Part shown: one piece after another, positions 1 through 42,227 of the stretch | Layout of the letters: every line of letters begins with the position of its first letter | How positions within the stretch are numbered: the stretch's first letter is position 1 | Assembly (NCBI GenBank): GCA_964414715.1 | Contig: CAYPXN010000040.1 | Coordinates: 5,988 to 69,987, forward strand | Length of the DNA stretch: 64,000 nucleotides | Origin: an uncultured Pseudomonadota bacterium | GTDB taxonomy: Bacteria; UBA10199; JADFYH01 | Direction: 5' to 3' | Notes under the pieces: generated by a model | Databases searched by the model: none | Seen by the model: only the letters and a program-made list of their open reading frames with translations | Told to the model about the DNA's origin: nothing | Position numbers and translations under genes: made by a program

Positions 1-8
1 TCACCACG

Positions 9-3000
9 ATGGTGATGAAAGGTAAAGCAGGTGTTTACGAAGGAGCTCGAGCCCGTTTTTTTGGTTTCATGGTGGAAACGGGTCCTGGTTGGCGATTGGA
101 CGGTTACTTGGGCGGCACTGAAAATAATATTTCAGATCAAGATCTCGCAAAAAGTACTCTCAAGCTTGCCCAGTGGTTTGTAAAAGAAGGAAAATACTCC
201 ACCGCTGCTCAAATCGCCTCTCTTATCAGCGAAGATATCTATGTAGGGGCTGAAGCAAAAAAACTCATCGAAGAAGATATTCCCTCAAGCGCGAAGTGGG
301 ACACGATACTCAACGCAGGTCACGGGCTTTTATATTTTACTCCTCTTGCTCCCGCCGTGGCTTTTGCCGATGTTTCTTCTCCTGCAACCATTGGTGAAGA
401 AAGTGGTGATACTCATGCATTGAATGCCTTAAAGGGAGTGGCTATGAATGCTGCCACCACGATAGTCCCCTTTGGCATTGCTCGCTGGGCAAGAGTGGGA
501 GCTGAAGCTGCATTCGTTGCGCGTGCTGCGACTTTAATTGAAAATCCCGCTGCTTTCAAAATTGCTGGATTTCTAGTCGGAACCACTACTGAAGCAGGAG
601 CCTTTACTCTTTCAAACATGACACTTCAATCCATGATGACGGGAAGTACCGCTAATTGGAATATCAAAAATTTTGGAAAAGAATTTGGATCCATGATGGT
701 GACTTTTGTTCTCTTGCATGGCGTGAGCATGAGAATGGAAAAAGTTGGAAAAAGTTTAGAAAAAGCAGGCGCTCTCGATACTTCTATTGGAAAAACTACT
801 TTTGGAGCGGCTAGCTGGGGAGTACGTGTCGGATCTTTTACAGCCACTGAATATATTAATGAAGCTATTGGCTTGAAAGAGCATGAAAATGTTCCTTTAT
901 GGATGCGTTTGCTGAGCTCGGCCATCACCGATGCACAAATGGTCAAAGCCGGAAAAGTGGTAGACATCCTGAGTGGTGGAAAAATTTCTAAAACAGAACA
1001 GGCAACACAATTAAAATACAAAGCTCATGAAATATTACCGACTTTGAAAAAAATAGGTTTCGATTTTAATCCTAATCCTGACCCCGGTAGTGGCCCTGGC
1101 TCTGGAAACATAATTCATACTGACTTTTCTTCACCCTTTCCTCAAAGTCCTGCGGAACTTGTGTTAAGGATCCTTGTTCAGAACTCTGTTCAAACAGGTC
1201 GTTTGGAAACGCCTCCTCAAGATACCATTGATCGTATTCATCAAATAATTAGCGATGGAAAAACAGACCTCCACTCTCCGGAAGGGCAAGCAAAGCTGGC
1301 GCTTTGGGTAACTTATGCACTGAGAGCAGGCGAGGGAGGAAAAAGTTTAACGGGTCCTGAGTTGGAACGCAATTATCATGAGCTCGATACAGGCACAAAA
1401 ACCTTTATTCAACAATGTGGTATAGACGGCGACTCGGCCTTGGGAAAACAGATCCAGGTCGAGTTGATGAATTTTGTTCTCAGCCGAAACATTTCTCCTA
1501 CCGAGTTCGGAAAATATTTGGAACATACTTCTGATATTTATAACACTTTGCACATGATTGCCTCTTCGCTTACCGGAAAGCCTGCGAGCTCTACTCCGGA
1601 AGGTCAAAAAATTATGGCGGGACTCATGCTGAGTCTTGCCCGCTCCGGAGACAATGCAGATCATATCCACGAATTGTGCGAACGATTAAGTGATGTCGAG
1701 CATGACTTAAGGTCTACGAATTTTTTCACACTGTCCGAAGCAAACACGCCGGATCAAAAACTTGCCCTCTTGTACTGGGCGGTGGAAAATGAAGTGTCGC
1801 AGGGAGATCTTGTTAAAATTGCAAATAACATCGAAGCTGGAAAATTGCATTTCGCATGGGAAAACGGGGATGTAAACTTAAGAAAGGGAGAAGGGGTTTT
1901 TGAACTTCGACCTGAAAACATTATTCATCCTGTGAGCGATGAACAAATTATTTCAGAAACACCCATTCCAGATACGGACAAGAAAGTCGCGGACGTTCAA
2001 GCCCCTCCCGTAGATGAAGCGTCTCAACGTGTGGCAGCCAGAGGAAAAGTCCAGGCTTCCCTGGTAAAGTCTGAACCCGTTGAAATATTGAATCGCTTGG
2101 CGAAGTCTTTTGGTATTTCAAAAAATTCGAGCTTTGTTCATGATCTTTCAGGCACAACAGCAGCTCGACATATTGACCCGGCAAAAGTAGAAAGCATTCT
2201 TAAAAAACTCAATCAAGCCCTTCAGGCAACAAAAATAAATCAGCGCTCCTTTAAAAATCCTGAGGCTGTTCGTGAGGAACTTTTCAAGAGAGTGGTGGAG
2301 GGAAAAATTACTGAACCCTTTGCCCAAATGCTTTTCGAAAAATGTAAAAGCCGAGAAATTAGTCCTGAAGATTTGGATTTTGTTTTGGGTTTTGATGCGA
2401 ATGGACGCAACATAGCTCTATTGGAAGCTGTTCCTGAATTGGGAGTCCAGTCCGCTTGGTTGGAAAAACTGGTCGAAAATCCTAAAGCATTTTACGACAA
2501 AGTAAAACGAGTCACCAATACGGACGGACGCCTTTTTAACCTTTTTAATATCATTTCCAAAGGACGAGAACTTAGCAAAGATGAAAAGGCAATTTTGATT
2601 CACAACCTCGAAGAAGCGGGCTTCAAAATTCCTGCTGCAGACAAAGAACAATATTTCGACGGACTGATTAGCATTATCAAAAATTACAATTCCTTAGGGC
2701 TAGAGGAGGTTTTTTCCTCTTCGGATCTTATCACACTCATGGCGGCACTTCACATGCACGGCGCAACCCCCGTCATTTCTGAGGCAAAAATGAAAGCTCT
2801 GGAGGATATTCCAGATCTTCTCCTTCGAAGACAAGCTTTCTTAAAAGTAATTTTAGAAGGCAATATGTCTGGATCGTCAACATTTGATCCTGTACGAGTA
2901 GCAGAAGGAGTAATGAATAATAAATGGGCTAAATCTGTTTTTTTAGATTTTGAGAATTCTTCTCATACACAAGCAAGACATCTTGCAGAAGGCAGCACGC

Positions 3001-6000
3001 CTTTTGCAAAAGCAGCCAAAGATTTCTTGGCAGGTAAAATTTCCGTTAATCAATACCATGAAACCCAGGATGCAATTGCAAAGCAAATGGTAAAAGATCA
3101 TCGTGTTGCGGGGGCTAAAGTTCTCTCATTTTTAAATATTTTAAGTTCGGATCCCTCTCTTAATATCAGTAAAAAACCACCTCCAACTGCTCGAATGAAA
3201 TCTATCACTGATATCGTGCCTAAAATAATACGACGGGGTTATACTCATGATGCAGCTCTTACTGATATTGCCGCTACTCGTGTGATTGTAAAATCAAATT
3301 CCGATGTAGAAGCAGTCATCGCAAAAATTCAGGAAAAATATCCCATTCGTGAGACTTATACCAAAGAGGGAGAAATAGAACTGGATCTCATGGATCCTGC
3401 TGAAGTGAGAGCACGAGGGCTGCCTGAAGTGGAAAATGAAGTTTGGTTGGATGTAAAGCCTGACAAAGACGCCATTCATCGTTTAGTCGAAGGTCATCCA
3501 GCAAGTGGTTATCGAGCTTTGCATGTCGTGGTTGAAATAGACGGAAAGCCCGTAGAAATCCAAATCAAAACCGAAGCGATGAATGAATGGGGAGAGATCG
3601 AACATAAACTCGTTTATAAAAACAAGAATCTTCCCGATGCAGTTATGGAACCCATCAAGGCATTCCGTAAAGCAGCGGCTGATTATTTAAGCAAGGCAGA
3701 ACATCTCAAACCGGGTGAAACTTTGGGAGAAATGCCCAAAGCCCCAGATATCCCGGACAACATTCCCAATGTAGCTGAAATTCGCAAGCAATTGGAAGCC
3801 ATGACAGCGCTAATGGAAAAATACACACCGGCTGTCGATGAATCACAAATCCCGATAGGCACGGGCTACACACAGGATGTAGGACGCAATTCTCCTCAGG
3901 AAATCCAAGAGATTGGACAAAGAGGAATGGATTTTGCTCAAGCTCTTCGGGAAGGAAACGAAAAAGACATTCCGCCTGCCTGGATCAGAAATATCTCTTG
4001 GACAAGTGAATATGGAAAACCTTTCTCTCGTCAGGCAGCTCTTCTTGCACAAACAGCAGCCCGAAACATTCCAATTTTAGTTCAAGAAATCCGTGCAAAA
4101 GAAATTTCTTATAGAAAAACAGGATCCACAGAAGAAAAAGGAAGAATCCTGAATCAACTGGACGATCTGTATATTCGCCTTGATCATCACAGTCAGGACC
4201 TGGAAAGATGGAAAAGGGTTTCTGATGGCGTAACACAATACGCAAAATCAATTTCAGACTTCTCCTTTCCTTATGTTCGTGATTCGGTAAGACACAGTGT
4301 GCGAAAAAATATGATGGAAACTGGTCGAAATAGGGAACACATGCCTGAACCGCCCTTGTCTCCGGTTTCCTTCGATATAGAAAGACCTGACTGGAGTGAA
4401 AACCCTGATCTGCGGGGAAATTTGATGGAAGCAGGTTTTGCCGGGCGAGATGTTTCATTGAATGACTACTCCATTCACTTTACAGTTTCGACTGAAGCGG
4501 AGCGTCGTAGTCTTTTGAACTTTATCGAACAAAACCCTGAAAGTAGAACTTATCGTATTTCTTCCGAAAGCCCTCATGTACTTCGCGTCCGCACCCCGCA
4601 GGGAAAAGATTTTCTGCTTGAAGTTCATCTTGCAAGCGAACGAAGAAATGCGAATACAGTCCCTGCAGAAGAAGATCTCCTCTTGGCTGCGGAGGCAAAA
4701 CCAAAACCAAAAGCCGTAGAACATGTTGAGTCCGAAGCGATGGTAAATCACGACGGGGGAGAGGGAGATGTAAGCAAAAATGTTTCTCCCAACAGATCTG
4801 AAGAAGCTACCAATCCTGGCATCAGAAGAAGAGGGCTTCCGGATGGCAGCTCCGCTCTCGTTTTGGGGATTCTCGCCGGAGGAGCAGCACTTCTTTACGG
4901 TTCAGATGCTCATGCAGCTGTTCATGAAGCAGGGAAAGCGATTTCAGATCCCGGCCACCTGATTTTTGAAGGTCTAAAATATGCAGCAGGATTCATTCCT
5001 GTTTTGGGAATGTTTTTTGGAAAAGGAGGGGGTGATAAAAAAAGTGTCGCACCAAGCATGGAGGTAAAACCCAATCCTCAGGATTCCGTCATTCTAATCG
5101 GCAGGAAGTACGGGCACTTTACAAATGATACTTCTGTATCCGGAACTCACTGCACACTGTATAAAACTTCTACAGGACAATGGGTTTTGCAAGATGGCGA
5201 CGCACAAGCAGGTCAGATCAAAGCAAGTAAAAATGGGGTTAAAATTTTGGATGCCGCAGGTAATGAAACGCCTCTTCCCAGTGGAGGAAGAACTTTTTTG
5301 CAAGACGGACAAGTGATTCTTGTGGGAAAATCAGCATTCATCTTTCGATCTCCGGATGCTCCTTCTCATCTCCAACAAGCTGTTCCCGGAGTTCCGCATA
5401 ATGCTGCCGCACGGGCTAGCGTAAAGCCTGCGCGCCAAAGCCCTGTGCCTGCAATCGATTTTACACAATATCCCTCTCTGACAATCCCTTCGACTTCGAA
5501 TCCTCGTGAAGAATTTATCATTGGAAATGCTGTGTATGAAGCTGGGGGTGGACAGGTGAATCATCTCACGGAGGACGGAGACCCCCATGCACGAGTTTAT
5601 TTTTCACTTCGAACCAACATTCAGGGCAAGTGGTTTGTTTATGATGGGAGAGTTGGGGGAGCTGAAAAAAGTCCTTATGGTATCGAAGTCATGATTTCGT
5701 CCGGAGAACGAAAAAGGGTTAATGGTTTTTCAGAACTTAATCCTGGAGATTTGATTATCTACAAAACACAGCGGGGAGAGCTTGTATATCGTTTTGATGG
5801 CCAAACTTCAGAAACTCCTTCCAGACCCGTAAGCGCAAACCCGGCAGACAAGGCACCAGAACCACCTCGCGTTTTGGCAGTATATGATGTTTCCAAATTT
5901 GCAGATTTAAGCGAAAACAACCCGAACTGGAAAAACAAACAGGGAGCTATTCCTGGGGTCGCTTTTGCCTCTCATGAAGGTGTGGGATACAAAGATCACA

Positions 6001-8948
6001 ACGAAGATCGTTATTACGCGATGAATTTGGGAGATGGTCGTACCATTACTTTTGCAATCGATGGTATGGGAGGGCAGGTGGGAGCAGAAAGGGCTGCCGA
6101 GATTATTCGTTCTTCCCTCGAAAGAGCCTTTGCGGAAGGTGCCAACATTCATGAAGCCATCGATGTAGCGAAGCGCACTCTAAGGGCTGTCAATCAACCC
6201 ATTGTCGATAACTTTGTTGCAAAAGGTAAAAAAGCTTATGAAGCAGATCCTCACTTACCAGGAGCGGTAGCTGTAGGGGTAAGCACAAAGGCCATTGAAG
6301 GTGGAAAATATGAAGCAGAATTTGTCAGCATTGGAGATGCAGAAGCGATTGTCATTCGACCTTCAGCCGATGGACGTTCAGCTCCCACCGTTCCTTTTTA
6401 TACCTCTAGACCTTCTGCCATGAATCTGCTCCTGCCCGATCGTAAAACTCCCACCCTTCAAGATGGCTCAGGTCGCAGACAAAGAAACTATACACTCGTG
6501 GAACGCCTCAACCCGATTGCAAACATCGTGGCTGAAGGACTGGGTCTTTCTTCTTCTGATATTCACTCTGATAAACAGGTATTGGAAAAAGGAGATATTA
6601 TCATTTCGGGTTCCGATGGATTTTTTGAAAACTTTGGCAGCTTTGATGAAATTGCAAAAGTCGTTCAGGCAAGTGGACAAAAAACTCCCCAGGGAATTCG
6701 GGATGCCTTGATGCGGGAAGCTCTTTTGCGTCAACAATTATTGAAAATGAGACAAAGTGGAGAAGTTCTTGAACTTACACACGAGAAATATGCTCTCGCT
6801 TATCAAACACTATTCCAACAGCAAGCCCCTGCAGGATGGCGTGGAATGTATGAATCCTCTCCCTCTCAACGTTTTGTTTTGGATAATAATGGCAATGTGG
6901 GAAGATGGGAAGACGTTGATCCCGCAAGTAAAACACTCAAAGAGCTCAACAATGTCCCACTGGCGATCACACACTTCAAAAGGGATAATACGACAGTGGG
7001 AGTTCAAATCTTGGGAGACAGCACTCCTCCTGTGCCTGAAGCCAAACCTGTTAAAGTAAGTCCTCCTCCACAAGAAGCACCCGTTGCAAAAGCTCCTGTG
7101 GGCGCAAAATTTCCTGATCCCGTTGCTCCAAGAGCAGGCAATGCCTATCATGTAGATTCGAATCCCACGGTCATCATGCCTGCACTTCGTCCCGAAAAAA
7201 TTCCTTGGCAACAAGTCGTAGGCAGCCCTTATCATTCGGTCATTTTAGGAAGACCTGCCAAGCAGGCTGGAGCCTCAAACCCCGCCAATCTTTTTCCTGT
7301 CGATGACCAGGCCATCGGCAGACGTCACGCTGAAATTGTAGTTGGGGCAGATGGCACGCGTTGGTTAAGAGATCTCAGTTATCAGGGAAGCTCGAAGGGA
7401 GAAAATTATGGAACTTGGGTTGCAGAACAGAACGCCTGGAGAAAACTGGCACCTGGAGAAAATTACCCATTAAAGGCAGGACAATCTTTCGCGCTGGGAA
7501 GCGTGATTGAAGAAGGAATGTCTCTGCCTTCGACAGGTGTAGGTCTTCCCAGCAAAAAATATAACCTCGATAACAGCATCGTTTATATATTGGGAACGGA
7601 TGGAAACACCTTGTTTAGCAATTCCCGTCCAACATCGAGAGGAGATCTTCTTCAAAAACCCGCAGCAGATCCTGTTATCGCAGGACGTGCTGCAATACGT
7701 CCTGTTCCGGTGAAGGATCTTCCACACACACCCTTGAATTCTTCCGGAGTAAGAATAGAAGGGAAATTGTATGGTGAAACGCCGGTACAAAATTTTTCTC
7801 TCCAAAATGTTTCTCAAGATCCAAACAAACCCACTTGGATAAGTGTTGCTTTTGGCGATCAACCTCGCTTGATTCAAGGATTTCCGGATACTTCCGGACA
7901 ACCTTTGTTCAAGGTAACCACCCGCAATGGAAAATACTATCTGCAACTGAATGCGGATCTGAGTCATGATGGTTGGAGCATAGACGGAACTCGACGTAGT
8001 ATGGGACAACAAGTGCTGGAAGGTGGAAAAACTTATCAAATTAAGATTGGAACTCATGATTTTAGTTTAACCTTACCTACTGCAAGTCCTGTCGTGGCAG
8101 AAGCAGCTCCTCCGAATACACAAAACCTTCCCAGAGAATGGCCTCCCTTGGGCAGCGCTGATACTATTATAGGAAGGGCAGATGGAAGTATTGCCCCACT
8201 TCATGATGGAAGAGGAATAAACTTTATCGATGATAGCGAAATTCGTACTATTTTTAGCCGCGCTTCAGAAGCAAAGGGTCGAGCAGATGGTGTTCCCTTT
8301 TCTGTTGACCGCTTTGGTCGTCATGTAATTCAGCAACAGGGGCAACGAGGCTGTACCGCTGCTGCAAGCGGAATGCTTATCCTGGATCAAGGTGGAAACT
8401 TAAGTGGAAGAGAAGTAAGAACTAGAAATTTAGGGAATGAAAAAACTACCGCATCGGATATTTATTATGCAGGACTTATTCCTATTCTTCCTCGGGGTGT
8501 GCAAAATCTTGAAACAGCCATCCAAAAACACGGTTCTATGGTTGTAGGTATTGGTGGAGAAATTGGAGGACATGTTATTGTTGTCGATTATTACTCGGAA
8601 GCAGAAGGAGTCGCCAGAATTCGAGATCCTTTTCATGGCTGGAGCATTGAAACCACGACAGATGCATTGAAAAGTCGGGGGGCTCGTGTTGAAGTGGGCG
8701 CTCAAAATTTTCAAACATTTTTTGCAGGTACTGCGCTTGCTGGAGTGCGTAGCCACGAACAGCTCAAGGATCCTGTCGGACTACTGGAACAGTATCTTCA
8801 AAACAGGGGTCAATGGAACAGCAACAAAATTACTATTGATAAGTTGATTGATTATATCAGGGCTCGCAGTTTCGTCATGGATTCTTATAACGACTCCATG
8901 AAGGCAAAATTGGATACTGTTCTCAGAAAATACGCTTATCCCAACTAA
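9..8948 (+). CDS. Giant multidomain protein of at least 2979 aa, probably 5'-truncated by the window edge. Contains a RelA/SpoT-like nucleotidyltransferase domain, a hydrophobic hairpin, FHA x2, a PP2C phosphatase, FHA x2, and a C-terminal papain-like Cys/His region.
   Basis: Uninterrupted ORF of 8940 nt. The frame is also open in the 8 nt upstream of the first ATG, so the true start probably lies outside the window. Motifs read from the translation: DIAATRVIV...GYRALHVVVE...EIQIKTEAMNEWGEIEHKLVYK (Rel/SpoT synthetase signature); NEDRYY...FAIDGMGGQ...SGSDGF (PP2C); G-R / S-R-x-HA / NG-T FHA signatures (VILGRP...IGRRHAEIV...GSSKGENYGTWV). Confidence 0.85.
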   Translation: MVMKGKAGVYEGARARFFGFMVETGPGWRLDGYLGGTENNISDQDLAKSTLKLAQWFVKEGKYSTAAQIASLISEDIYVGAEAKKLIEEDIPSSAKWDTILNAGHGLLYFTPLAPAVAFADVSSPATIGEESGDTHALNALKGVAMNAATTIVPFGIARWARVGAEAAFVARAATLIENPAAFKIAGFLVGTTTEAGAFTLSNMTLQSMMTGSTANWNIKNFGKEFGSMMVTFVLLHGVSMRMEKVGKSLEKAGALDTSIGKTTFGAASWGVRVGSFTATEYINEAIGLKEHENVPLWMRLLSSAITDAQMVKAGKVVDILSGGKISKTEQATQLKYKAHEILPTLKKIGFDFNPNPDPGSGPGSGNIIHTDFSSPFPQSPAELVLRILVQNSVQTGRLETPPQDTIDRIHQIISDGKTDLHSPEGQAKLALWVTYALRAGEGGKSLTGPELERNYHELDTGTKTFIQQCGIDGDSALGKQIQVELMNFVLSRNISPTEFGKYLEHTSDIYNTLHMIASSLTGKPASSTPEGQKIMAGLMLSLARSGDNADHIHELCERLSDVEHDLRSTNFFTLSEANTPDQKLALLYWAVENEVSQGDLVKIANNIEAGKLHFAWENGDVNLRKGEGVFELRPENIIHPVSDEQIISETPIPDTDKKVADVQAPPVDEASQRVAARGKVQASLVKSEPVEILNRLAKSFGISKNSSFVHDLSGTTAARHIDPAKVESILKKLNQALQATKINQRSFKNPEAVREELFKRVVEGKITEPFAQMLFEKCKSREISPEDLDFVLGFDANGRNIALLEAVPELGVQSAWLEKLVENPKAFYDKVKRVTNTDGRLFNLFNIISKGRELSKDEKAILIHNLEEAGFKIPAADKEQYFDGLISIIKNYNSLGLEEVFSSSDLITLMAALHMHGATPVISEAKMKALEDIPDLLLRRQAFLKVILEGNMSGSSTFDPVRVAEGVMNNKWAKSVFLDFENSSHTQARHLAEGSTPFAKAAKDFLAGKISVNQYHETQDAIAKQMVKDHRVAGAKVLSFLNILSSDPSLNISKKPPPTARMKSITDIVPKIIRRGYTHDAALTDIAATRVIVKSNSDVEAVIAKIQEKYPIRETYTKEGEIELDLMDPAEVRARGLPEVENEVWLDVKPDKDAIHRLVEGHPASGYRALHVVVEIDGKPVEIQIKTEAMNEWGEIEHKLVYKNKNLPDAVMEPIKAFRKAAADYLSKAEHLKPGETLGEMPKAPDIPDNIPNVAEIRKQLEAMTALMEKYTPAVDESQIPIGTGYTQDVGRNSPQEIQEIGQRGMDFAQALREGNEKDIPPAWIRNISWTSEYGKPFSRQAALLAQTAARNIPILVQEIRAKEISYRKTGSTEEKGRILNQLDDLYIRLDHHSQDLERWKRVSDGVTQYAKSISDFSFPYVRDSVRHSVRKNMMETGRNREHMPEPPLSPVSFDIERPDWSENPDLRGNLMEAGFAGRDVSLNDYSIHFTVSTEAERRSLLNFIEQNPESRTYRISSESPHVLRVRTPQGKDFLLEVHLASERRNANTVPAEEDLLLAAEAKPKPKAVEHVESEAMVNHDGGEGDVSKNVSPNRSEEATNPGIRRRGLPDGSSALVLGILAGGAALLYGSDAHAAVHEAGKAISDPGHLIFEGLKYAAGFIPVLGMFFGKGGGDKKSVAPSMEVKPNPQDSVILIGRKYGHFTNDTSVSGTHCTLYKTSTGQWVLQDGDAQAGQIKASKNGVKILDAAGNETPLPSGGRTFLQDGQVILVGKSAFIFRSPDAPSHLQQAVPGVPHNAAARASVKPARQSPVPAIDFTQYPSLTIPSTSNPREEFIIGNAVYEAGGGQVNHLTEDGDPHARVYFSLRTNIQGKWFVYDGRVGGAEKSPYGIEVMISSGERKRVNGFSELNPGDLIIYKTQRGELVYRFDGQTSETPSRPVSANPADKAPEPPRVLAVYDVSKFADLSENNPNWKNKQGAIPGVAFASHEGVGYKDHNEDRYYAMNLGDGRTITFAIDGMGGQVGAERAAEIIRSSLERAFAEGANIHEAIDVAKRTLRAVNQPIVDNFVAKGKKAYEADPHLPGAVAVGVSTKAIEGGKYEAEFVSIGDAEAIVIRPSADGRSAPTVPFYTSRPSAMNLLLPDRKTPTLQDGSGRRQRNYTLVERLNPIANIVAEGLGLSSSDIHSDKQVLEKGDIIISGSDGFFENFGSFDEIAKVVQASGQKTPQGIRDALMREALLRQQLLKMRQSGEVLELTHEKYALAYQTLFQQQAPAGWRGMYESSPSQRFVLDNNGNVGRWEDVDPASKTLKELNNVPLAITHFKRDNTTVGVQILGDSTPPVPEAKPVKVSPPPQEAPVAKAPVGAKFPDPVAPRAGNAYHVDSNPTVIMPALRPEKIPWQQVVGSPYHSVILGRPAKQAGASNPANLFPVDDQAIGRRHAEIVVGADGTRWLRDLSYQGSSKGENYGTWVAEQNAWRKLAPGENYPLKAGQSFALGSVIEEGMSLPSTGVGLPSKKYNLDNSIVYILGTDGNTLFSNSRPTSRGDLLQKPAADPVIAGRAAIRPVPVKDLPHTPLNSSGVRIEGKLYGETPVQNFSLQNVSQDPNKPTWISVAFGDQPRLIQGFPDTSGQPLFKVTTRNGKYYLQLNADLSHDGWSIDGTRRSMGQQVLEGGKTYQIKIGTHDFSLTLPTASPVVAEAAPPNTQNLPREWPPLGSADTIIGRADGSIAPLHDGRGINFIDDSEIRTIFSRASEAKGRADGVPFSVDRFGRHVIQQQGQRGCTAAASGMLILDQGGNLSGREVRTRNLGNEKTTASDIYYAGLIPILPRGVQNLETAIQKHGSMVVGIGGEIGGHVIVVDYYSEAEGVARIRDPFHGWSIETTTDALKSRGARVEVGAQNFQTFFAGTALAGVRSHEQLKDPVGLLEQYLQNRGQWNSNKITIDKLIDYIRARSFVMDSYNDSMKAKLDTVLRKYAYPN

Positions 8949-9018: not shown

Positions 9019-11157
9019 CTAAGTCCTCCCCAAAATCCTCTTGTTCACTCCCAAATAATAACTTCTGTCTGCACGGTTGCGCAAAAACATGGGAAGATTT
9101 TCTCCAATTCTTGCTGCATCTCTCCATGTGCTTAATTCATAATGGGTCATGGTCCAGCGTTCTTCTTCGAGATAAGCCATCATTTCAGAAACGATCCTGC
9201 TGTGTCGATCCAGTGAGTAAATGACAGGGTCTGCTCCAACCTCCATTTCATCGTAATTTCCCGTCCTGTGTTTCCAGTGCTCCCATTCATGAATCAGCGC
9301 CTGCAATCGCATGACCACTTCGTCTCGAGCACGAGAAATTCCTTCGTGGGTCTGCATGTTGGGCCGAGGAATATTTTTAATTACAATCAAATCCTCAATC
9401 TCTGTTCTGGGAACAAAAAAAGCCACTCCACAGTCACTGGGGGCATGCAGGGAAGAAGCCATTTCCTGAAACTCTGCTTCATCCACAATAAGAATTTGAA
9501 AAGCATGGGAATGCCATGCCCTTTTCAAACTTTCTATATGAGGAGTAGTATTTGCTTCCAGAAGTAAAATCATTTCTTCTTCTGTAAAAGGTCTTCCTGA
9601 TTCCAGAAATGCAAAGACATTATCAAGCACTCTTCTTTTTGCTTCTTCCACCTTATGTGGATTTTTTAGAGATTCTTCCACGTCCATCATCACCGAAACC
9701 ACTTTTCTGGCCAGACGCTCATCATGGATAAAAGCAGTGGCCGAGCTTCCATTCATGAGATGAGCCACCAACTGGGGATCTATTCCATTGTTTACCATCC
9801 AAGCAATGGAGCCCAGTTTATCTTCCGAATGATCTCCTTCCGTGATTTCTTTCAGCTTGTAAGGAGAATCTTCCACTGCAAAAATTTGGCAGGCTCGTCG
9901 GAACACCAACATTCCTGCTGGACTTCGAAGGGCATAGGCGAGAACTTTATAAATATCCTTGGCCTCGTAACGTCCTCCCCTGAGCGCCTGAACAACAAGA
10001 GTAGAGTTTTTGATAAAGTCACGAAGATCCTGAAGGCTCAAACGATTCGAATAAGAAAACTCATCAAACAGCTTGTAAATTTCTGCCCGAGTGATTCCTT
10101 GCCGCATGGCCTCCAAAATTTTTCCCAAACGTTCTTGACGAAGCTGGGGAGCTTCGGAAATCCCTCGACTCAACAACTCATGCAACAACATGCGGTCAAA
10201 ACCACCTGTAGGCGTTTTATCTGCTTCGGTCGTAAAAACTTCCTGTATCCCTCGTAACACATGAAGTTGTTCCAGTGTTCCCGCTTGTGGCATGCGAGAA
10301 CAAATCTCAAGCAAGCTTGTATAATGACCCATTTTTTCAAAGGGAGTTTCCAGAGCGGTTTCAATAATTTCTTGCACATAATTGTCACGATAGGGGAGAT
10401 CGGGAAAACGCGGTTTCCATGTATCTAACCAATGTTGACGCTCGGCAGGATCCTTGAAATCAAACTCGTCTCGAGGGCTTGCAAAAACTTTCAGACCTCT
10501 TTGCATCGTTTCTTCAAAAACAAAGTCTTGCTTTGAAAGTTCCGGGCCTTGAACAAGACTCTCCATGGCTTTTGTTTCACGAGCTGATATTCCCCCGGTA
10601 ACCAGTTCTCCCAAACTCATTCCCACACCCATTGCCGTATTGGTCATTTCGGCGTGGAGATATTGCTGAGTGAGAGATCCTTCAGGAGCAAGAGTCAGGT
10701 GTAGGGCATAGCTGAGATGTTCTCCCGCCACCATTCCCGTATCCTGGATAAAATGATTGAGGAACAAATGGGAGCTGCCCAATTTCCCAAAAAGTTTCAG
10801 ATTGGCAAAGTTCAGGTAAGTGCCCAGAAATTCTTCGCGCGAAAAAACAGAGGAGAGGGAAGCGTTGTTTAAAAGAATTTGACTTCCGCGATAGGCACTC
10901 ACTTCTGTAAAAAGACCCACCAAAGGAGCCAAGACTTTGCCGGCAAGAGGAGCAATGGCATCATTGGCCAAAACAGCCGCTTTTCCAAAGCGATAAGCGA
11001 GCCCGCCTGCCATCATGGAAAGAGTGTTTCTCCAATTGCACGCCTCTTCCATGAACTGGTGATCCAGGGCATCCATTTCCCTTTGTTGGGAAGTCAAGTT
11101 GTGGGAGGAAGGCAAGGATGAGCTCACGCTCATTCTGCGATCCAAGAGGTTCATCAT
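9019..11157 (-). CDS. Hypothetical 712-aa protein with a C-terminal HExxH (HEWEH) zinc-metallopeptidase-like motif. Convergent with the giant gene. No signal peptide.
   Basis: A 2.1-kb ORF cannot be chance. The motif LIHEWEHWKH lies near the C-terminus. The stop codon is TAG. No family recognised by eye. Confidence 0.7.
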   Translation of the reverse strand: MMNLLDRRMSVSSSLPSSHNLTSQQREMDALDHQFMEEACNWRNTLSMMAGGLAYRFGKAAVLANDAIAPLAGKVLAPLVGLFTEVSAYRGSQILLNNASLSSVFSREEFLGTYLNFANLKLFGKLGSSHLFLNHFIQDTGMVAGEHLSYALHLTLAPEGSLTQQYLHAEMTNTAMGVGMSLGELVTGGISARETKAMESLVQGPELSKQDFVFEETMQRGLKVFASPRDEFDFKDPAERQHWLDTWKPRFPDLPYRDNYVQEIIETALETPFEKMGHYTSLLEICSRMPQAGTLEQLHVLRGIQEVFTTEADKTPTGGFDRMLLHELLSRGISEAPQLRQERLGKILEAMRQGITRAEIYKLFDEFSYSNRLSLQDLRDFIKNSTLVVQALRGGRYEAKDIYKVLAYALRSPAGMLVFRRACQIFAVEDSPYKLKEITEGDHSEDKLGSIAWMVNNGIDPQLVAHLMNGSSATAFIHDERLARKVVSVMMDVEESLKNPHKVEEAKRRVLDNVFAFLESGRPFTEEEMILLLEANTTPHIESLKRAWHSHAFQILIVDEAEFQEMASSLHAPSDCGVAFFVPRTEIEDLIVIKNIPRPNMQTHEGISRARDEVVMRLQALIHEWEHWKHRTGNYDEMEVGADPVIYSLDRHSRIVSEMMAYLEEERWTMTHYELSTWRDAARIGENLPMFLRNRADRSYYLGVNKRILGRT

Positions 11158-11398
11158 CGTTGTGCCCCGTATGAGCTATCATCAAAAACCGATAGCTGCC
11201 CCCGTTATGATTTTTTGAACTAAAACTTTTTCGGAGATTTTGCTCAAAAGTTGCCCTAGAAATCAGGGTTTATAAAAACTTTAATTATGACGCAGAGTGT
11301 TGAAATAAGGGCATTTTCACTGCTTTCCTATCGCAACATTTTTTGTTTGCGACCGATAACTATAAATGTATGAGGGCTATAATTTGGGAGGTTTTAAT

Positions 11399-12406
11399 AT
11401 GCAGGATAGGGGAAAAAAATTAAGTCGATGGATTTATAGTGTACTGACGGCTTTGATCTTTACTTTCGGTGCCTTCGCCTGCGGCGGGGGAGATCAAGCT
11501 CAAGTCGGCGGCATTATCGGAACGGTTTCTTTTAATACCCAAGCTTGCGTGCCTCAACAAAAAATCATCAATTTTCGTAACAGCGATACCCAAAATCCCC
11601 AACGTGTAATGGGCGTTTCCTTTGAATTGGGGACGAATGATAATGGTAATTACAAAATTGATAAAGTGGTGGTTGGCGCTACTGAATATCAACCGAGTTC
11701 AAATTTAGCACAAGATGTATTGATACCTGCCGGTGGTATCATGTCTGTATATACTACTTATACTCCTCGAGTAATTACAACAAAAACAGGCCACAATCTT
11801 AGTTATTTAGATCTGTTTTTAAATGGTCCAAAATTGGGAATTCTCCAAATAAAACTAGATGGTGAGTCGGATACGGCAAAAGAAGGTTGTTCTTCTGACA
11901 ATAAAAAAACATTCAAAGTTACCAAAGCAACTTTCATTATGAATCATCAAGATTTTACTTCAGGGCAACCTAGAGAGTTTGATCTCACAATCAAAAAAGG
12001 AGATTTAAATTTAGGCATGGGAAGTGACGGAAGTTTAACTTTAAGTGAAAGTTCAGATTTTCCTACTTTAACATTACCGCTACCTCCTGAATTGGGTGCT
12101 CCAGTGCCCGAATTAGATATTACCATGGATGCTGGAAGCTACACAGGCACACTTGATGACCAAGGAAAAATGGAGCTCCAAAATTTAAATTTAAAAGCAC
12201 TCGTTATCCCAATTCCAAATGTTACTTTAACAACTGAGCCGGCAAGTATTACTCAACCTAAGGGTAGTGTTAGTGTCGAAGGAAAGAGATTAGCTGATAA
12301 TAAAGCAACACTTGTTGCAGCTATACCAGTCCCCGACGATAGCAACTTAGCAAAACTTAAAGATGGTGCTTTTGGCTTAAAAATAGAAATTGAAGCTCAA
12401 CAATAA
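11399..12406 (+). CDS. Putative lipoprotein, paralog 1 of a tandem pair, with a conserved N-terminal domain and divergent C-terminus.
   Basis: GGGAGG RBS 8 nt upstream of the ATG at 11399. N-terminal signal peptide followed by Cys (FAC-GGG). The first ~170 residues are nearly identical to the downstream paralog. Confidence 0.75.
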   Translation: MQDRGKKLSRWIYSVLTALIFTFGAFACGGGDQAQVGGIIGTVSFNTQACVPQQKIINFRNSDTQNPQRVMGVSFELGTNDNGNYKIDKVVVGATEYQPSSNLAQDVLIPAGGIMSVYTTYTPRVITTKTGHNLSYLDLFLNGPKLGILQIKLDGESDTAKEGCSSDNKKTFKVTKATFIMNHQDFTSGQPREFDLTIKKGDLNLGMGSDGSLTLSESSDFPTLTLPLPPELGAPVPELDITMDAGSYTGTLDDQGKMELQNLNLKALVIPIPNVTLTTEPASITQPKGSVSVEGKRLADNKATLVAAIPVPDDSNLAKLKDGAFGLKIEIEAQQ

Positions 12407-12428: not shown

Positions 12429-13448
12429 ATGGGGCACCGGAGAAATCTCATGACAAATCAAAATTCTAAATCCATTCGAACTTTATATTATTATCTGATT
12501 GCAATGTTTATTTGCACCTTTGGTGCTCTTTCTTGCGGTGGAGGAGATCAAGCTCAAGTCGGCGGCATTATCGGAACGGTTTCTTTCAATACCCAAGCCT
12601 GCGTACCCCAACAAAAAATCATCAATTTTCGTAACAGCGATACCCAAAACCCCCAACGTGTAATGGGCGTTTCCTTTGAATTGGGGACGAATGATCAAAA
12701 TAAATATAAAATTGATAAAGTGGTAGTGGGTAATACTGAATATCAGCCTTCCGCAAATTTAGCACAAAATGTATTGATCCCTGCAGGGGGCATCATGAGT
12801 GTCTATACTACTTATAAAACTACTAAAGTTACAGGCTCCTCTAACGACACTTCCTATCTCGACCTATTTTTAAATGGCCCTAAACTTGGTATTTTACAAA
12901 TCAGAATGAATGGACAAGCCCCTACTGCAAAAGAAGGCTGTGGAGAAGGGGAAACAATGACCTTTACCGTTAACAAGGCGACCATGGAAATTAGTATGCC
13001 TGGCAGTTCATTTGATGGTTTTAAAAATGAGGTAACTGCAACAGGTAATTTTGTTTTCCTAGTTGCTGGAGATGGTAGTGCTACTATTGATAAAGATGGT
13101 TTTCCAAAGTTAACCTTTGTTTCTGAAGCATTAAGATCCACTCCTGTAAACAGCAATCAACTCGAGATTAAATTGGATAACGACACCTTTACAGGTACAT
13201 TTACCGACAATAAACTATCAATCGATCATTTAAAGTTAAATGCTCTATTGCCTATTGATGGCGTCACGCTCAAATCCGAAGATCTTGCCATCACAGGTGA
13301 CAATGGTGCCTCCTTAACTCTGCATGGATCAGCTTTAACTGATTCAGGAGATATGAAAGTAGTCATAGGTGTAAAAGTACAAGGATTTAATGCTGCTTTA
13401 GACGGTGCAGCAATCGGAGTGACTTTCGAACTTAAAAAACAGAATTAA
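12429..13448 (+). CDS. Putative lipoprotein, paralog 2 of the tandem pair. Alternative start ATG at 12450.
   Basis: Signal peptide with an ALSC lipobox-like motif. The mature N-terminus (GGDQAQVGGIIGTVSFNTQACVPQQKIINFRNSDTQNPQRVMGVSFELGTND) is identical to paralog 1. Confidence 0.75.
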   Translation: MGHRRNLMTNQNSKSIRTLYYYLIAMFICTFGALSCGGGDQAQVGGIIGTVSFNTQACVPQQKIINFRNSDTQNPQRVMGVSFELGTNDQNKYKIDKVVVGNTEYQPSANLAQNVLIPAGGIMSVYTTYKTTKVTGSSNDTSYLDLFLNGPKLGILQIRMNGQAPTAKEGCGEGETMTFTVNKATMEISMPGSSFDGFKNEVTATGNFVFLVAGDGSATIDKDGFPKLTFVSEALRSTPVNSNQLEIKLDNDTFTGTFTDNKLSIDHLKLNALLPIDGVTLKSEDLAITGDNGASLTLHGSALTDSGDMKVVIGVKVQGFNAALDGAAIGVTFELKKQN

Positions 13449-13506: not shown

Positions 13507-14070
13507 CTATTCGCGTGGACAGCAGGCTAGAAAAATAGTTATGCTAACATTTGTTGTTGCATTTGGAGTAAGCACACTACAATACCTACCTCTAATAATA
13601 GCCTCCGAATCAGGAATGCCCCCAAAACACAATGCACCAGGAACAATAAAACTTTTTATTGCTGAACTACATGGACCCTCTAGAAACCAAGTAGGAATTG
13701 CACCATTGGTAGAAATACTACAACCTCCACTTACAGCCACTTGACCAGAGCCGCAATCTAATTCACCTGTAACACCTTGCCTGGCAGTGAAACTTCTGTG
13801 CACTTCCCTACAGCCACTCCAAAGAATCCCAGGCCCCCTCGGCCCAGCAGGCCCTTGCAAACCCATCGGACCTATTGGTCCCTGAGGCCCCTGAATTCCT
13901 TGGGGCCCACGCTCTCCCGCTCTCCCTGGAGGGCCTTGAGGACCCGGATCTCCCGTGAAGCCTCTAGGGCCTTCACTTCCATTTTCTCCTCGCGGACCTC
14001 TTTCTCCAGTACAGCTTTCTAATAACAAGCCTGCCAAAGCAACGGCTCCAATAGCAACAATGGGCAGCAT
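13507..14070 (-). CDS. Collagen-like triple-helix repeat protein (about 25 G-X-Y triplets) with an N-terminal hydrophobic anchor or signal and a Cys-rich C-terminal globular domain.
   Basis: Translation [70 protein letters not shown] 7 nt upstream of the second ATG ([10 protein letters not shown]...). The ORF track starts 11 codons earlier. Confidence 0.75.
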
Positions 14071-14191
14071 AAATACCTCCTTGTTTGGTATCCATGTGCC
14101 CACCTAAAGTTTTACTTTCTTAAATTTTAACTCGATAAAATACAAGAAAAGTTGTTAATATTTCTCAAGCGAACACAACACGGAGCGTTAT

Positions 14192-27050: not shown

Positions 27051-27707
27051 ATGGCTATAAGCACTGAACTTCTGAAACTACTTGTTTGCCCCAAGTGCAA
27101 AAAGGCTCTTCAGTATCAATCTAAAGAAGATGCTTTGCTATGTTCTTCTTGTTCACTTTTGTACCCTATACAGGAAGGCGTTCCTGTGATGAGCGAAGAA
27201 GAAGCTTTTGAAATCGGAAAGGGAGGGGAACTTATGACCAAAGCTACAAAGTCACCGGTAGCTATTTTCAAAATCAAAGAGGGTCCCAACCAAGGTGAGT
27301 CTCTTAAGCTCCCTCTCGATTCTTGTCGAGCCATTGGAAGAAGCATCGACGATGTGAACAAAACCCAAATCTTCAACATGGAGCCTATTGTTCCACTGGA
27401 TGACTTTACCAAAAAACTCGTCTTGAATTATCTTTCCAAGAAAAAGGGTAAAGCAGCTCCTGCAAAAGCAAACACTGAAAATGCCTTTGGAAGTTTTAAA
27501 AGACTTCCAGACTTGGTCCTCAACGATCCAGCCATTTCCAGACTTCATGCCATGCTTTTTTATGATGAGAGTGGGGCGGGAATATTAGATTTGGTTTCCA
27601 GAAATGGTACTTTTGTAAATGGTCAAGAAGTGGAGTCTCGTACTTTAAAAGAAGGGGACCTCATTGAAATTGGTGCCACTAAAATTGCATTTTCAATGTC
27701 GAACTAG
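27051..27707 (+). CDS. Trm112-like zinc-ribbon domain fused to an FHA domain.
   Basis: N-terminus LLKLLVCPKCKKALQY...LLCSSCSLLYPIQEGVPVM (Trm112/UPF0434). C-terminus AIGRS...ISRLHAML...SRNGTFVNGQ (canonical FHA motifs). Confidence 0.7.
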   Translation: MAISTELLKLLVCPKCKKALQYQSKEDALLCSSCSLLYPIQEGVPVMSEEEAFEIGKGGELMTKATKSPVAIFKIKEGPNQGESLKLPLDSCRAIGRSIDDVNKTQIFNMEPIVPLDDFTKKLVLNYLSKKKGKAAPAKANTENAFGSFKRLPDLVLNDPAISRLHAMLFYDESGAGILDLVSRNGTFVNGQEVESRTLKEGDLIEIGATKIAFSMSN

Positions 27708-29223: not shown

Positions 29224-31383
29224 ATGGTCACTCTCGAAAAGATCATTCAGAACATCAAATCCTACAACCCCCAAGGGGATTTTTCTCTCATTCAAAAAGC
29301 AGGGGATTTTGCCAGTAAGGTTCATAAAGGCCAAGAAAGGCAATCCGGAGAACCTTATATTATTCATCCTCTCGAAGTTGCTGAAATTCTTGTTCAAATG
29401 AAACTCGATGTTCCGTCTATTGTTGCAGCACTGCTTCACGATACGATAGAAGATACTTCTGCAACTCTCGACGAAATCAAAAAAGAATTCGGACCTGAAA
29501 TTGCCCACTTGGTAGATGGCGTAACCAAACTCAGCAAAATTCAATTTTCGAGCGCACAAGAAAAACAGGCCGAAAATTTTCGCAAAATGATCATGGCTAT
29601 GGCGAAAGACATCCGGGTTATTCTGATCAAGCTTGCGGATCGCCTCAACAACATGAGAACTCTGAAACACCTCTCCGAAGAAAGACAACAAAACATTGCC
29701 CGCGAAACCATGGATATCTATGCTCCTTTAGCAAACCGTTTGGGAATCCAGTGGATGAAGGTTGAACTCGAGGAGTTATCTTTCAAATATCTTAAACCTG
29801 AAGCCTATAAAGATATTGATGAAAAAATGAGGCAGGTTAAAAAAGAATCTGCTCCTTATATTGAGAAAGTGCTCCAGGAAGTTTCAAGCAAGCTGAATGA
29901 GTATAAAGTTCCCCATCAAATTTATGGTCGCCTCAAACATTATTTTAGTATTTACAGAAAAATGGCGGCCCAAAACATTTCTTTTGAACAAGTAAATGAC
30001 TTGATTGCTTTCCGAATTATCGTGGACAACATTACACAGTGTTATACTGCCCTAGGAATTATTCACGAACTTTGGACCCCCATCCCCGGGCGATTCAAGG
30101 ATTACATTGCCATGCCCAAGGCAAACAACTATCAATCACTCCATACCACTGTAGTATGCATGGAAGGAGAGCGTGCAGAATTCCAGATTCGAACGAAAGA
30201 AATGAATGAAGTGGCGGAAAAAGGGATCGCTGCACACTGGAACTACAAAGAAAATGGTTCGATCGACGACAAAGATCAGCAAAAATTTCAGTGGGTACAG
30301 GAACTGCTAAAATGGCAAAACGAACTCAAAGACCCGGCCGAATTTCTCGATACCGTCAAACTTGATTTATTTGCCACAGATGTTTATGTTTTTACACCCA
30401 ATGGTGATGTGAAAGAACTTCCTCACGGAGCCACTCCTATTGATTTTGCCTATTCCATTCACTCTGACGTGGGAAATCGCTGTGTGGGTGCAAAAGTAAA
30501 TGAAAAGATTGTCCCTCTTAATTATCGCTTACGAAGCGGTGACACCATAGAAATTCTCACAAGTGCCCATCACAAACCCTCCAAAGACTGGCTTAAATTC
30601 GCCGTCACTTCCCGGGCAAAATCCAGGATTCGCCAAGTAATTCAACACGAACAACGAGAAAAAAGTATTATCCTGGGAAAAGAGTTAATTGAAAAGGAAT
30701 TCGAAAAATTCAAACTTTCCCCCTCAAAATACATGAAAGGGGAAGAACTCAAGCACGCCATTCAGGAAATGGGCTATCAAAATCTTGAAACCTTACAAAT
30801 GCACGTGGGTTATGGAAAAATTTCTCCCTTACAATTTATTTCAAAACTCGTTCCACGTGAACTTCTTGCAGAAAAAGCTTCAGAAGAAACAAAAGCCGAA
30901 AGTACTCTTTCCAGAATTTTCAAAAAGGTAAAAGAACGTGGTAAGAGCATTGTAAAAGTAGGTGGCTACGACGACATCATGGTATCTTTGGGGCGTTGCT
31001 GCTCCCCTCTACCTGGAGATCCTATCATAGGATTTATTACGCGAGGCAGGGGAGTTGTGGTTCACATTATGGACTGTGCCAAGGTTCTTTCCACAGACCC
31101 CGAACGAAGAGTGGAGGTTGCTTGGGACAAACACAGTGAAGCTTCTCATCAGGCAAAACTGAAAATTGTAAGTGCAGACAGACCTGGCCTCTTAGCATCC
31201 ATGAGTAAAACTATTGCCAATGAAGGGGTCAATATCTCTCAGGCTTCCATACGAACCACGAGTGACGAAAAAGCAGTAAATATCTTTGAAGTGGAAATCA
31301 AAAACATCTCCCAATTAAAAGGAGTATTACGGGCCTTGGAAAAATTGGGAGGAGTAATCAGCGTGGAGAGAATAAGGAATTAA
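29224..31383 (+). CDS. spoT: Bifunctional (p)ppGpp synthetase/hydrolase, Rel/SpoT long RSH.
   Basis: HD hydrolase domain (HPLEVAEIL..HDTIED), synthetase domain, and TGS plus ACT C-terminal domains. Length 719 aa. Confidence 0.9.
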   Translation: MVTLEKIIQNIKSYNPQGDFSLIQKAGDFASKVHKGQERQSGEPYIIHPLEVAEILVQMKLDVPSIVAALLHDTIEDTSATLDEIKKEFGPEIAHLVDGVTKLSKIQFSSAQEKQAENFRKMIMAMAKDIRVILIKLADRLNNMRTLKHLSEERQQNIARETMDIYAPLANRLGIQWMKVELEELSFKYLKPEAYKDIDEKMRQVKKESAPYIEKVLQEVSSKLNEYKVPHQIYGRLKHYFSIYRKMAAQNISFEQVNDLIAFRIIVDNITQCYTALGIIHELWTPIPGRFKDYIAMPKANNYQSLHTTVVCMEGERAEFQIRTKEMNEVAEKGIAAHWNYKENGSIDDKDQQKFQWVQELLKWQNELKDPAEFLDTVKLDLFATDVYVFTPNGDVKELPHGATPIDFAYSIHSDVGNRCVGAKVNEKIVPLNYRLRSGDTIEILTSAHHKPSKDWLKFAVTSRAKSRIRQVIQHEQREKSIILGKELIEKEFEKFKLSPSKYMKGEELKHAIQEMGYQNLETLQMHVGYGKISPLQFISKLVPRELLAEKASEETKAESTLSRIFKKVKERGKSIVKVGGYDDIMVSLGRCCSPLPGDPIIGFITRGRGVVVHIMDCAKVLSTDPERRVEVAWDKHSEASHQAKLKIVSADRPGLLASMSKTIANEGVNISQASIRTTSDEKAVNIFEVEIKNISQLKGVLRALEKLGGVISVERIRN

Positions 31384-42099: not shown

Positions 42100-42227
42100 C
42101 ATTCCTAAAATAAGTGATGAGACCCTAATCAATAATCTAAAAAACAATAGACAGCAACCCCTTCTTTGCCCTTAAAATAGTGGAATTCCGAGGAGCGGGA
42201 CTTTTTTTCACACTTCAGGGGAGGCTT

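Follow-up and report, generated by a model that had tools for sequence, protein, structure and literature searches.

What might a bacterium do with a single protein that carries an alarmone-synthetase-type domain, phospho-signalling domains and a papain-like C-terminus on one polypeptide? The question is raised by a stretch of 64,000 nucleotides (nt) from an uncultured groundwater bacterial lineage (GenBank assembly GCA_964414715.1, contig CAYPXN010000040.1, positions 5,988 to 69,987 of the forward strand), called the window below, which begins inside a giant open reading frame (ORF). An original prediction, made from the letters alone, proposed either a secreted effector or polymorphic toxin, or a new kind of signalling scaffold. 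The analysis reported here leans towards the second proposal. We tentatively read the protein as a cytoplasmic multi-enzyme signalling hub of ~4,000 amino acids (aa) that would be tethered to the inner membrane and possibly processed like a polyprotein. Its modules, from the N-terminal side, are a family-defining core, two helical regions (HEL1, HEL2), a small alarmone synthetase (SAS) module, a further conserved region (MID), a hydrophobic hairpin, two FHA domains, a PP2C-type phosphatase, a third FHA domain, a beta domain (B4) and a cysteine peptidase-like domain (Table 1). The overall domain reading of the original prediction was essentially correct.

Extent and integrity of the open reading frame

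The giant ORF is genuine and longer than the window shows. From the ATG at position 9 to position 8948 on the forward strand it runs as one uninterrupted frame of 2,979 codons, and the frame is also free of stops from the window edge to that ATG, so the true start lies outside the window. A Logan contig of 12.5 kb (SRR6837549, L023) was reached via the exact sequence of the neighbouring 712-aa protein (P0060). It was identical to the window across 11,518 nt, all domain junctions included, and added 982 nt upstream, through which the giant frame remained open without a start; the protein is therefore at least 3,309 aa long. Because the first residue of the extended protein aligns to aa 642-768 of full-length homologues, the complete length is estimated at ~3,950-4,080 aa. 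When the first 55 nt of the window were looked for as exact DNA in metagenome contigs, no match was obtained. The single giant ORF of at least 2979 aa that had been predicted was thus confirmed and lengthened, and the proposed extension upstream succeeded in part, the true N-terminus still not being reached.

The original prediction had named a chimeric misassembly among the findings that would refute it. An assembly chimera, or several genes read as one ORF, would account for one junction that was found in the window protein alone, that of B4 with the peptidase domain (~aa 2705-2712), and the metagenome-assembled genome (MAG) STL-UBA2 carries equivalent units as several consecutive ORFs. However, the L023 contig, which may have the same reads as its origin, matches the window at every junction, and BLAST showed homologues P0001-P0003 to be collinear with the window protein over the core-HEL1, HEL2-SAS, MID-hairpin-FHA, FHA-PP2C and FHA3-B4 junctions. 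The 8.9 kb are free of stop codons, and base composition is uniform. With an identical contig, and with homologues collinear over nearly all junctions, an artefact of this kind is very improbable, and it was rejected.

Family, chassis and cargo

The protein belongs to a rare family. A word-indexed search returned only eight relatives (2,070-4,314 aa), all unnamed or annotated as 'hypothetical protein'. An exhaustive profile search with window aa 1-350 identified 54 cluster representatives among 1.84 billion proteins, nearly all of them very large (up to 7,998 aa), and a metagenome scan with the core alignment (A1) yielded only five further loci. All 11 genome loci came from MAGs labelled UBA10199, STL-UBA or 'Deltaproteobacteria bacterium', with up to four paralogues per genome that were sometimes clustered.

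The members share a chassis comprised of a TPR-rich helical N-terminus, the long-helix core (~200-1,700 residues from the N-terminus in full-length members) and then (S/T)PEGQ helical repeats; the HEL1-type repeats come after the core in most members, in 1-5 copies. No structural neighbour was found for the ~350-aa core domain, and no usable Pfam or PDB match for MID. Together with the unnamed homologues, this agrees with the earlier statement that the architecture is unlike any characterised family. There was no signal peptide at the N-terminus of any full-length homologue. In the homologues scanned with Pfam, no known trafficking domain (PAAR, RHS, TPS, LXG or RTX type) was identified, and the N-terminal parts showed only TPR.

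Behind the chassis, the Pfam-recognisable cargo across the family included FHA, PP2C/SpoIIE, RelA_SpoT, Pkinase, ResIII/DEAD/SNF2 helicases, a methyltransferase and a 2H-SAK phosphoesterase. The recognisable enzymes are of nucleotide- or S-adenosylmethionine-dependent types, accompanied by FHA, which gives the cargo a cytoplasmic character, and every recognisable catalytic domain is of a common type, as the original prediction had stated. A family-internal profile scan of 56 family proteins and the window protein found PP2C in 13, FHA in 17 and SAS in 7, with partial support by BLAST.

Hydrophobic hairpin

The two-helix hydrophobic hairpin of the original prediction was found again, at the helix positions given in Table 1. 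Its sequence reads IRRRGLPDGSS-ALVLGILAGGAALLYG-SDAHA, followed by A, with a predicted signal-peptidase-I-type site after A1636 (nt 4908-4916). Nineteen hairpins in 14 family proteins share one pattern with the window's own: a basic flank; a ~17-residue helix rich in Gly, Ala and Leu; a helix breaker, then Asp or Glu and next A-x-A; a 14-30-residue loop; and a second hydrophobic helix with a basic flank behind it. Summed over the 19 family hairpins, the N-flanks hold 48 Lys and Arg residues and the C-flanks 49, against 20 in the loops. The hairpins thus obey the positive-inside rule, which would place both flanks in the cytoplasm. By hand count, AxA or VxA stands just past helix 1 in 18 of the 19 and in the window's hairpin (the AxA background is 1.4% per position), and Ala at −1 was the sole invariant column in an alignment of 17 hairpins.

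The element looks like an internal Sec signal peptide, with a basic n-region, a hydrophobic h-region and, at positions −3 and −1, small residues, after which comes a stop-transfer helix, and we infer that signal peptidase I would cleave between A1636 and A1637. A PEP-CTERM or sortase-type sorting signal was also considered and was rejected, as the hairpin is internal and the spacing is wrong. In the FbcH cytochrome b/c1 polyprotein of Bradyrhizobium japonicum, an internal signal peptide is cut by signal peptidase. FbcH is thus a precedent for a bacterial membrane polyprotein split at an internal signal-peptide-like sequence; the two proteins are unrelated, and cleavage in the present family is a prediction from the n-region, h-region and AxA pattern.

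Alarmone-synthetase module

The predicted RelA/SpoT-type nucleotidyltransferase domain was upheld, with a score of 69.1 bits for Pfam RelA_SpoT (PF04607) against a cut-off of 27. The synthetase motifs RxKxxxSxxxK, DIAxxR, GYRxxH, EIQI(K)T and EHxxxYK align with those of the RelP/RelQ structures 2be3, 6fgk and 3l9d (E 5e-10 to 2e-6). None of the other solved RelA/SpoT-type chains came below E ~0.1, and every solved chain that matched at E<1 is named as RelP, RelQ or a long RelA/Rel. The catalytic motifs are intact, and by sequence the module is a member of the RelA/SpoT superfamily of the small alarmone synthetase type. It is found also in P0003, P0012, P0013, P0018, P0019 and P0040.

With RelP and RelQ the module has in common the above-cut-off RelA_SpoT domain, the R-K-S-K substrate loop, D-x-x-x-x-R, GYRxLH, EIQI[R/K]T and EHxxxYK. 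Whereas those are proteins of ~200-250 aa, the SAS described here sits inside a ~4,000-aa protein, carries a ~50-aa insertion between the conserved halves and has a conserved ~70-aa N-terminal extension (aa 981-1050) that travels with it in the family. Unlike for the toxSAS of toxin-antitoxin modules, neither a small antitoxin gene beside it nor a fused antitoxin domain was found, the sole adjacent gene being convergent and encoding 712 aa. Elsewhere in the window, a 719-aa ORF (29224-31383, forward strand) reads from its translation as a long bifunctional Rel/SpoT-type protein. If so, the SAS of the giant would be an extra alarmone synthetase and not the only one.

FHA and PP2C array

An array of the form FHA-FHA-PP2C-FHA-FHA had been predicted. 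FHA1 and FHA3 were identified by Pfam, FHA2 by family profiles, and PP2C was likewise found; the proposed fourth FHA domain, B4, had no Pfam match. Against the family FHA profile, B4 aligned by hhalign with a probability of 48% and E 1.9e-4, covering the C-terminal two-thirds of FHA, and it is probably a degenerate FHA-like domain at best. The excised PP2C segment scored 26.9 bits with the SpoIIE model (cut-off 25), E 4e-4 with PP2C_2 and E 1.7e-6 with Stp1. Its Asp-containing motifs NED, DGMGG, GD, SDG and DN were seen on reading at aa 1997-2002, 2018-2022, 2108-2113, 2200-2205 and 2324-2329, respectively.

The canonical phospho-threonine residues of FHA1 and the complete metal-binding motif set of PP2C are those of bacterial FHA/PP2C/Hanks-kinase modules, for example the PpkA-PppA-Fha1 pathway of the type VI secretion system (T6SS), and a kinase domain likewise occurs in one family member (P0005). 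In contrast to that pathway, the modules are fused in one predicted membrane-tethered giant, and no T6SS genes were found nearby.

Within the phosphatase, aa 2270-2318 may be a WW-like insertion; this segment (PAGWRGMYESSPSQRFVLDNNGNVGRWEDVDP) has two Trp 22 residues apart, and Pro at +5, not +3. Another phospho-threonine reader in the region is a Trm112p-like zinc-ribbon protein fused to FHA (27051-27707, forward strand).

C-terminal peptidase domain and convergent partner gene

The papain-like, Cys/His peptidase-like C-terminus that had been noted was upheld, as a C39/AvrRpt2-like domain. The domain had no Pfam or PDB sequence match, and only three homologues were found among 5.8 billion proteins, all of them small stand-alone proteins. 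In the alignment with these three, Q2776, C2782, H2855 and D2873 are invariant, which gives the Gln/Cys/His/Asp(Asn) arrangement on a papain fold (clan CA, C39/C70-like). The order Gln-(x5)-Cys...His...Asp, with the Cys at a helix start, is shared with C39/C70 peptidases (bacteriocin-processing, AvrRpt2) and with the CdiA-CT toxin of Citrobacter rodentium (8ssm), yet there is no significant sequence match to these (profile E 0.056-0.27), and the domain is not fused to an ABC transporter.

Immediately downstream of the giant, and convergent with it, lies the gene for the 712-aa protein, called the partner here. No usable Pfam, PADLOC or PDB match was obtained for it, its one PDB match, to a designed helical repeat, being treated as compositional. 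Partner homologues adjoin giant paralogues in L004, L001/L016, L015 and L007, and L022 has a related form; no partner was seen in the available flank of several loci that are more distant. The gene is kept whatever C-terminal domain the giant carries.

The N-terminal domain of the partner may be a copy of the core that has diverged. The two did not match significantly in a plain HMM search, and profile-profile comparison gave a weak match (probability 15%, E 0.0018). In a 904-aa neighbour of P0008 (L022), a weak core-like domain is joined to a C-terminal domain like that of the partner; this neighbour matches the core profile at E 5e-8 in a two-sequence target set, a value that is not a database-wide significance. 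Two further copies of the partner's N-domain were observed in the STL-UBA2 region (L005-L007).

Table 1. Modules of the giant ORF and the adjoining partner gene, in window coordinates
Feature	Position (nt)	Residues (aa)	Strand	Description
Giant ORF	1..8948		+	Cut off at its 5' end by the window; 2,979 codons visible, rising to at least 3,309 when contig L023 is added; ~4,000 aa estimated in full
Family-defining core	9..1058	1-350	+	TPR-like unit first, then a bundle of six long helices (24-41 residues each); conserved polar residues
HEL1	1086..1988	360-660	+	Helical repeats with recurring (S/T)PEGQ motif; family-internal jackhmmer, BLAST collinearity with P0001-P0003
HEL2	2106..3128	700-1040	+	Helical, varies between lineages; no Pfam match
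SAS-type module	2949..3854	981-1282	+	Pfam RelA_SpoT at aa 1062-1207 (nt 3192-3629); motifs RMKSITDIVPK, DIAATR, GYRALH, EIQIKT, EHKLVYK
MID	3876..4778	1290-1590	+	P0001-P0003 conserve it, as does a separate ORF of MAG STL-UBA2; no Pfam match
Hairpin module	4845..5015		+	Basic flank IRRRG; helix 1, aa 1613-1631; SD-AHA then A (predicted site); 19-aa loop; helix 2, aa 1651-1669; basic flank
FHA1	5091..5378	1695-1790	+	Canonical GR...SxxH...NG residues (IGR...SGTH...KNG); Pfam E 2.4e-6
FHA2	5496..5813	1830-1935	+	Divergent; missed by Pfam; FHA1 and FHA2 family profiles match reciprocally
PP2C-type Ser/Thr phosphatase	5961..7013	1985-2335	+	Motifs HNEDRY, DGMGG, IGDAEA, SGSDGF, KRDNTT
WW-like segment inside PP2C	6816..6962	2270-2318	+	Weak match to YAP1 WW domain, E 0.13-0.2
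Proline-rich linker	7014..7193	2336-2395	+	18 Pro per 100 aa in tile 2301-2400
FHA3	7221..7523	2405-2505	+	Passes Pfam; usual phospho-threonine-contacting Ser replaced by Gly (IGRRH)
B4	7716..8123	2570-2705	+	Beta domain without phosphopeptide-binding residues; no Pfam FHA match
Papain-like (C39/C70-like) cysteine peptidase, putative	8142..8693	2712-2895	+	Q2776, C2782 (nt 8352), H2855 (nt 8571), D2873 (nt 8625)
C-terminal helical tail	8694..8945	2896-2979	+	Missing from stand-alone peptidase-domain homologues
Partner gene (712 aa)	9019..11157		-	N-terminal amphipathic helical domain; C-terminal domain with invariant HEWEHWxH and conserved downstream Glu (zincin-like)

Gene neighbourhood

The window gene and the genes for P0001, P0004 and P0006 sit at one and the same locus. 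Upstream of the homologues lie hemC and hemD, a side that falls outside the window, and downstream, as in the window, are the convergent gene of ~740 aa, one or more lipoprotein genes and the MurJ region. Collagen-like, Bcp and NUDIX genes recur in some of the homologous loci. Conservation of this position in four lineages points to vertical inheritance, which is in keeping with the signalling hub.

The adjoining secretion (T6SS, Rhs or type I secretion system, T1SS) or immunity genes that the original prediction had proposed to look for were not found. No secretion or mobile-element genes were seen at 31-64 kb of the window (Pfam on the 10 largest ORFs, all of housekeeping families), at 9-31 kb (reading of translations) or in three homologous loci (precomputed Pfam labels), and no same-strand immunity-type gene follows the giant ORF. 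A tblastn search of the chassis against 50,697 phage and 72,556 plasmid records gave no match.

Proposed function

For the signalling hub, we propose that the large regions on either side of the hairpin remain in the cytoplasm, held at the inner membrane by the hairpin. The periplasmic loop may be cleaved by signal peptidase I, which would leave two membrane-anchored pieces, one with TPR, core and SAS and the other with FHA, PP2C and peptidase. The TPR/core region would scaffold the assembly. The FHA domains would dock phospho-threonine proteins made by Hanks kinases (P0005 carries a Hanks-type kinase in the same polypeptide), the PP2C domain would reset these marks, and the output of SAS would be (pp)pGpp or a related nucleotide. 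Further proteolytic processing, or cleavage of substrates, may fall to the cysteine peptidase and the HExxH partner, the latter perhaps docking through its core-like N-domain. The turnover of cargo between orthologues suggests that stress or conflict may be what is sensed.

A more far-reaching form of processing, a membrane-polyprotein strategy, is conceivable but unlikely. The giant precursor would be threaded at internal signal-peptide/stop-transfer hairpins, signal peptidase I would cut the AxA sites, and the papain-like domain and HExxH partner would trim the products, yielding stoichiometric membrane-tethered enzymes organised by the core.

Several observations weigh against the signalling hub. 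Cargo is swapped at the same locus: SAS is present in the window protein and P0003 and absent in P0001 and P0002, and P0004 has neither SAS nor PP2C. The C-terminal domains differ among all orthologues. A housekeeping signalling protein would not usually show such swapping at one locus, which is typical of conflict systems. FHA3 and B4 are without the canonical phospho-threonine contacts, and no Hanks kinase was identified in the window, where no systematic screen for one was made. The structure model of the peptidase is of low confidence (pLDDT 52), its closest resemblance is to a CdiA-CT toxin, and one of the small stand-alone proteins that are the only sequence homologues of the domain comes from a Parachlamydia MAG.

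Alternative explanations

One alternative is a delivered multi-effector toxin, on the logic of MARTX, polyvalent proteins or chlamydial Inc proteins. The chassis and hairpins would then mediate export or insertion into the membrane of a target cell, and the papain-like domain would free the SAS, PP2C and FHA effectors in the target cytoplasm. The bilobed hydrophobic hairpins are reminiscent of Inc proteins, the cargo differs among same-locus orthologues, and the peptidase is CdiA-CT/AvrRpt2-like, with one of its stand-alone homologues in a Parachlamydia MAG. RelA/SpoT domains act as toxins in polymorphic-toxin, toxin-antitoxin and polyvalent systems (PMC5512222), and C-terminal C39-like domains have been proposed to process the giant proteins of Omnitrophota (10.1101/2023.11.21.568195). 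This has to be set against the signal peptide, trafficking modules and secretion-system genes that the scans described above did not find, and against the downstream convergent gene, which stays constant across C-terminal domains where a small same-strand immunity gene would be looked for. The hairpins, moreover, follow the positive-inside rule expected for the producer's own membrane, FHA and PP2C are typical endogenous regulators, and the gene position is conserved among housekeeping genes. The secreted effector or polymorphic toxin of the original prediction is not supported on these grounds, and a delivered toxin is, in our judgement, improbable.

A cell-autonomous defence against phages or other invaders is a further, similarly doubtful explanation, in which the TPR/core region senses, SAS (growth-arresting or tRNA-modifying) and the peptidase abort, and FHA/PP2C form a phosphorylation-controlled safety catch. 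Defence proteins in which a sensor is fused to a toxSAS have a precedent in CapRel. Rapid cargo turnover between orthologues and the several, sometimes clustered, paralogues per genome would fit, as would a weak match at aa 1010-1110 to a PADLOC candidate (PDC-S33). The cargo overlaps conflict repertoires (RelA/SpoT, the 2H-SAK of P0045, ResIII/DEAD/SNF2 helicases, methyltransferase, zincin and papain-like peptidases; PMC5512222). However, no STAND, NACHT or other NTPase switch was detected, PADLOC returned no match for the partner and other neighbours, and the locus lies outside a defence island, with heme, envelope and lipoprotein neighbours conserved across lineages. Among solved structures SAS is closest by sequence to housekeeping RelP/RelQ, and multiple membrane hairpins with FHA arrays are atypical of known defence proteins.

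Comparison with known giant and toxin systems

The window protein appears to work somewhat like polyvalent or MARTX-type proteins and like FHA/PP2C/kinase modules, yet it fails the defining features of each. Polymorphic toxins have an N-terminal secretion or trafficking module and a same-strand downstream immunity gene, neither of which was found here. The C-terminal regions do differ between orthologues and the fold of the last domain resembles CdiA-CT, yet the variation takes in the C-terminal half as a whole and is not confined to a tip. As in polyvalent proteins (Iyer et al. 2017, PMC5512222), many unrelated enzymatic domains lie on one very long polypeptide, with overlapping cargo (RelA/SpoT, 2H phosphoesterase, SNF2-type helicase, methyltransferase and peptidases). 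In contrast to these, the gene is chromosomal and in housekeeping synteny, no MuF, relaxase, type IV secretion system or packaging context was found, and the family has its own conserved chassis without a homologue in the phage and plasmid collections; the words FHA, PP2C and transmembrane are absent from the text of PMC5512222. As for MARTX toxins, neither RTX repeats nor C80 protease families were found by Pfam, the peptidase being C39/C70-like and not C80, and there were no adjacent T1SS genes in the window.

TPR, transmembrane anchors, a C-terminal C39-like peptidase and a mostly unannotated sequence are common to the giant proteins of Omnitrophota (West-Roberts et al. 2023 preprint, 10.1101/2023.11.21.568195) and to the protein described here. 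The Omnitrophota giants are predicted to exceed 30,000 aa (up to 85,804 aa), to be extracellular and to be preceded by secretion-system genes, and their C39-like peptidase has been proposed to cleave a larger propeptide (same preprint). Our protein, by contrast, comes from another phylum and has ~4,000 aa, and no sequence relationship was found.

Further family members and neighbouring genes

MAG STL-UBA2 contig JAXMHI010000004.1 (L005, L006, L007) holds three giant family genes within ~50 kb. Its units are broken up over successive ORFs on the same strand: ORFs of 279, 642 and 198 aa encode the P0005 N-terminal region, and P0006 has behind it two ORFs, of 1,335 and 1,200 aa, with downstream modules. 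The split could be real gene fission, which would be compatible with parts that act as separate polypeptides, or it could equally reflect frameshift errors. In L022 (Logan SRR13076556 contig, 10001-32036), P0008 (4,011 aa) is followed by the same-strand 904-aa gene and then by a second giant of at least 3,559 aa, which runs off the end of the fetched locus and has a RelA_SpoT domain.

P0045 (7,998 aa) has a 2H-SAK ('Swiss Army Knife') domain at ~residues 4900-5020 (E 3.7e-13), flanked by HD-motif-like sequences, which suggests cargo of the RNA-repair or cyclic-nucleotide-phosphodiesterase type. In unannotated cargo of P0036 (7,126 aa), a zincin-like HEMGH motif (LGFLVHEMGHS) was seen by reading at ~residues 2470-2480. 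Met-Gly starts (for example MGNG..., MGSE..., MGGS...) occur in 13 of the 43 full-length members among P0001-P0056, and in the second giant of L022. N-myristoylation of these N-termini was considered and rejected, as the consensus is not matched at position 6.

The lipoprotein and collagen-like neighbours described earlier were both seen again, the former on reading and the latter by Pfam. Two tandem paralogous lipoprotein-like genes (11366-12406 and 12429-13448, both on the forward strand) have N-terminal hydrophobic stretches ending in Cys. Their N-terminal parts share 88% DNA identity over 301 aligned nt, and the C-terminal halves have diverged; homologues hold the same position in L004 and L001. 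The small collagen-triple-helix repeat protein (13507-14103, reverse strand; Pfam Collagen E 4.7e-9) carries a hydrophobic segment in its N-terminal part and a C-terminal domain rich in Cys, and it is conserved in L004. Two patatin-like phospholipase genes lie less than 4 kb apart, at 38529-39764 (reverse strand) and 42180-43484 (forward strand).

Implications

Undescribed so far are the chassis and the partner gene, the hairpin in which the AxA site is conserved, and the swapping of cargo at a vertically inherited locus. The family adds a conserved domain without a structural relative, a recurrent metalloprotease-like partner and an internal-signal-peptide-like hairpin with a specific predicted cleavage site, in a host from a candidate phylum without cultured members. 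If the reading as a signalling hub holds, Ser/Thr phospho-signalling would be wired directly to alarmone synthesis on one membrane-tethered giant, an arrangement that has not been described. The membrane-polyprotein strategy, if true, would amount to an expression logic like that of viral polyproteins in a bacterial chromosome. Cargo exchange between orthologues at a locus that is passed on vertically is unusual; it could reveal how modular proteins of very large size evolve outside mobile elements.

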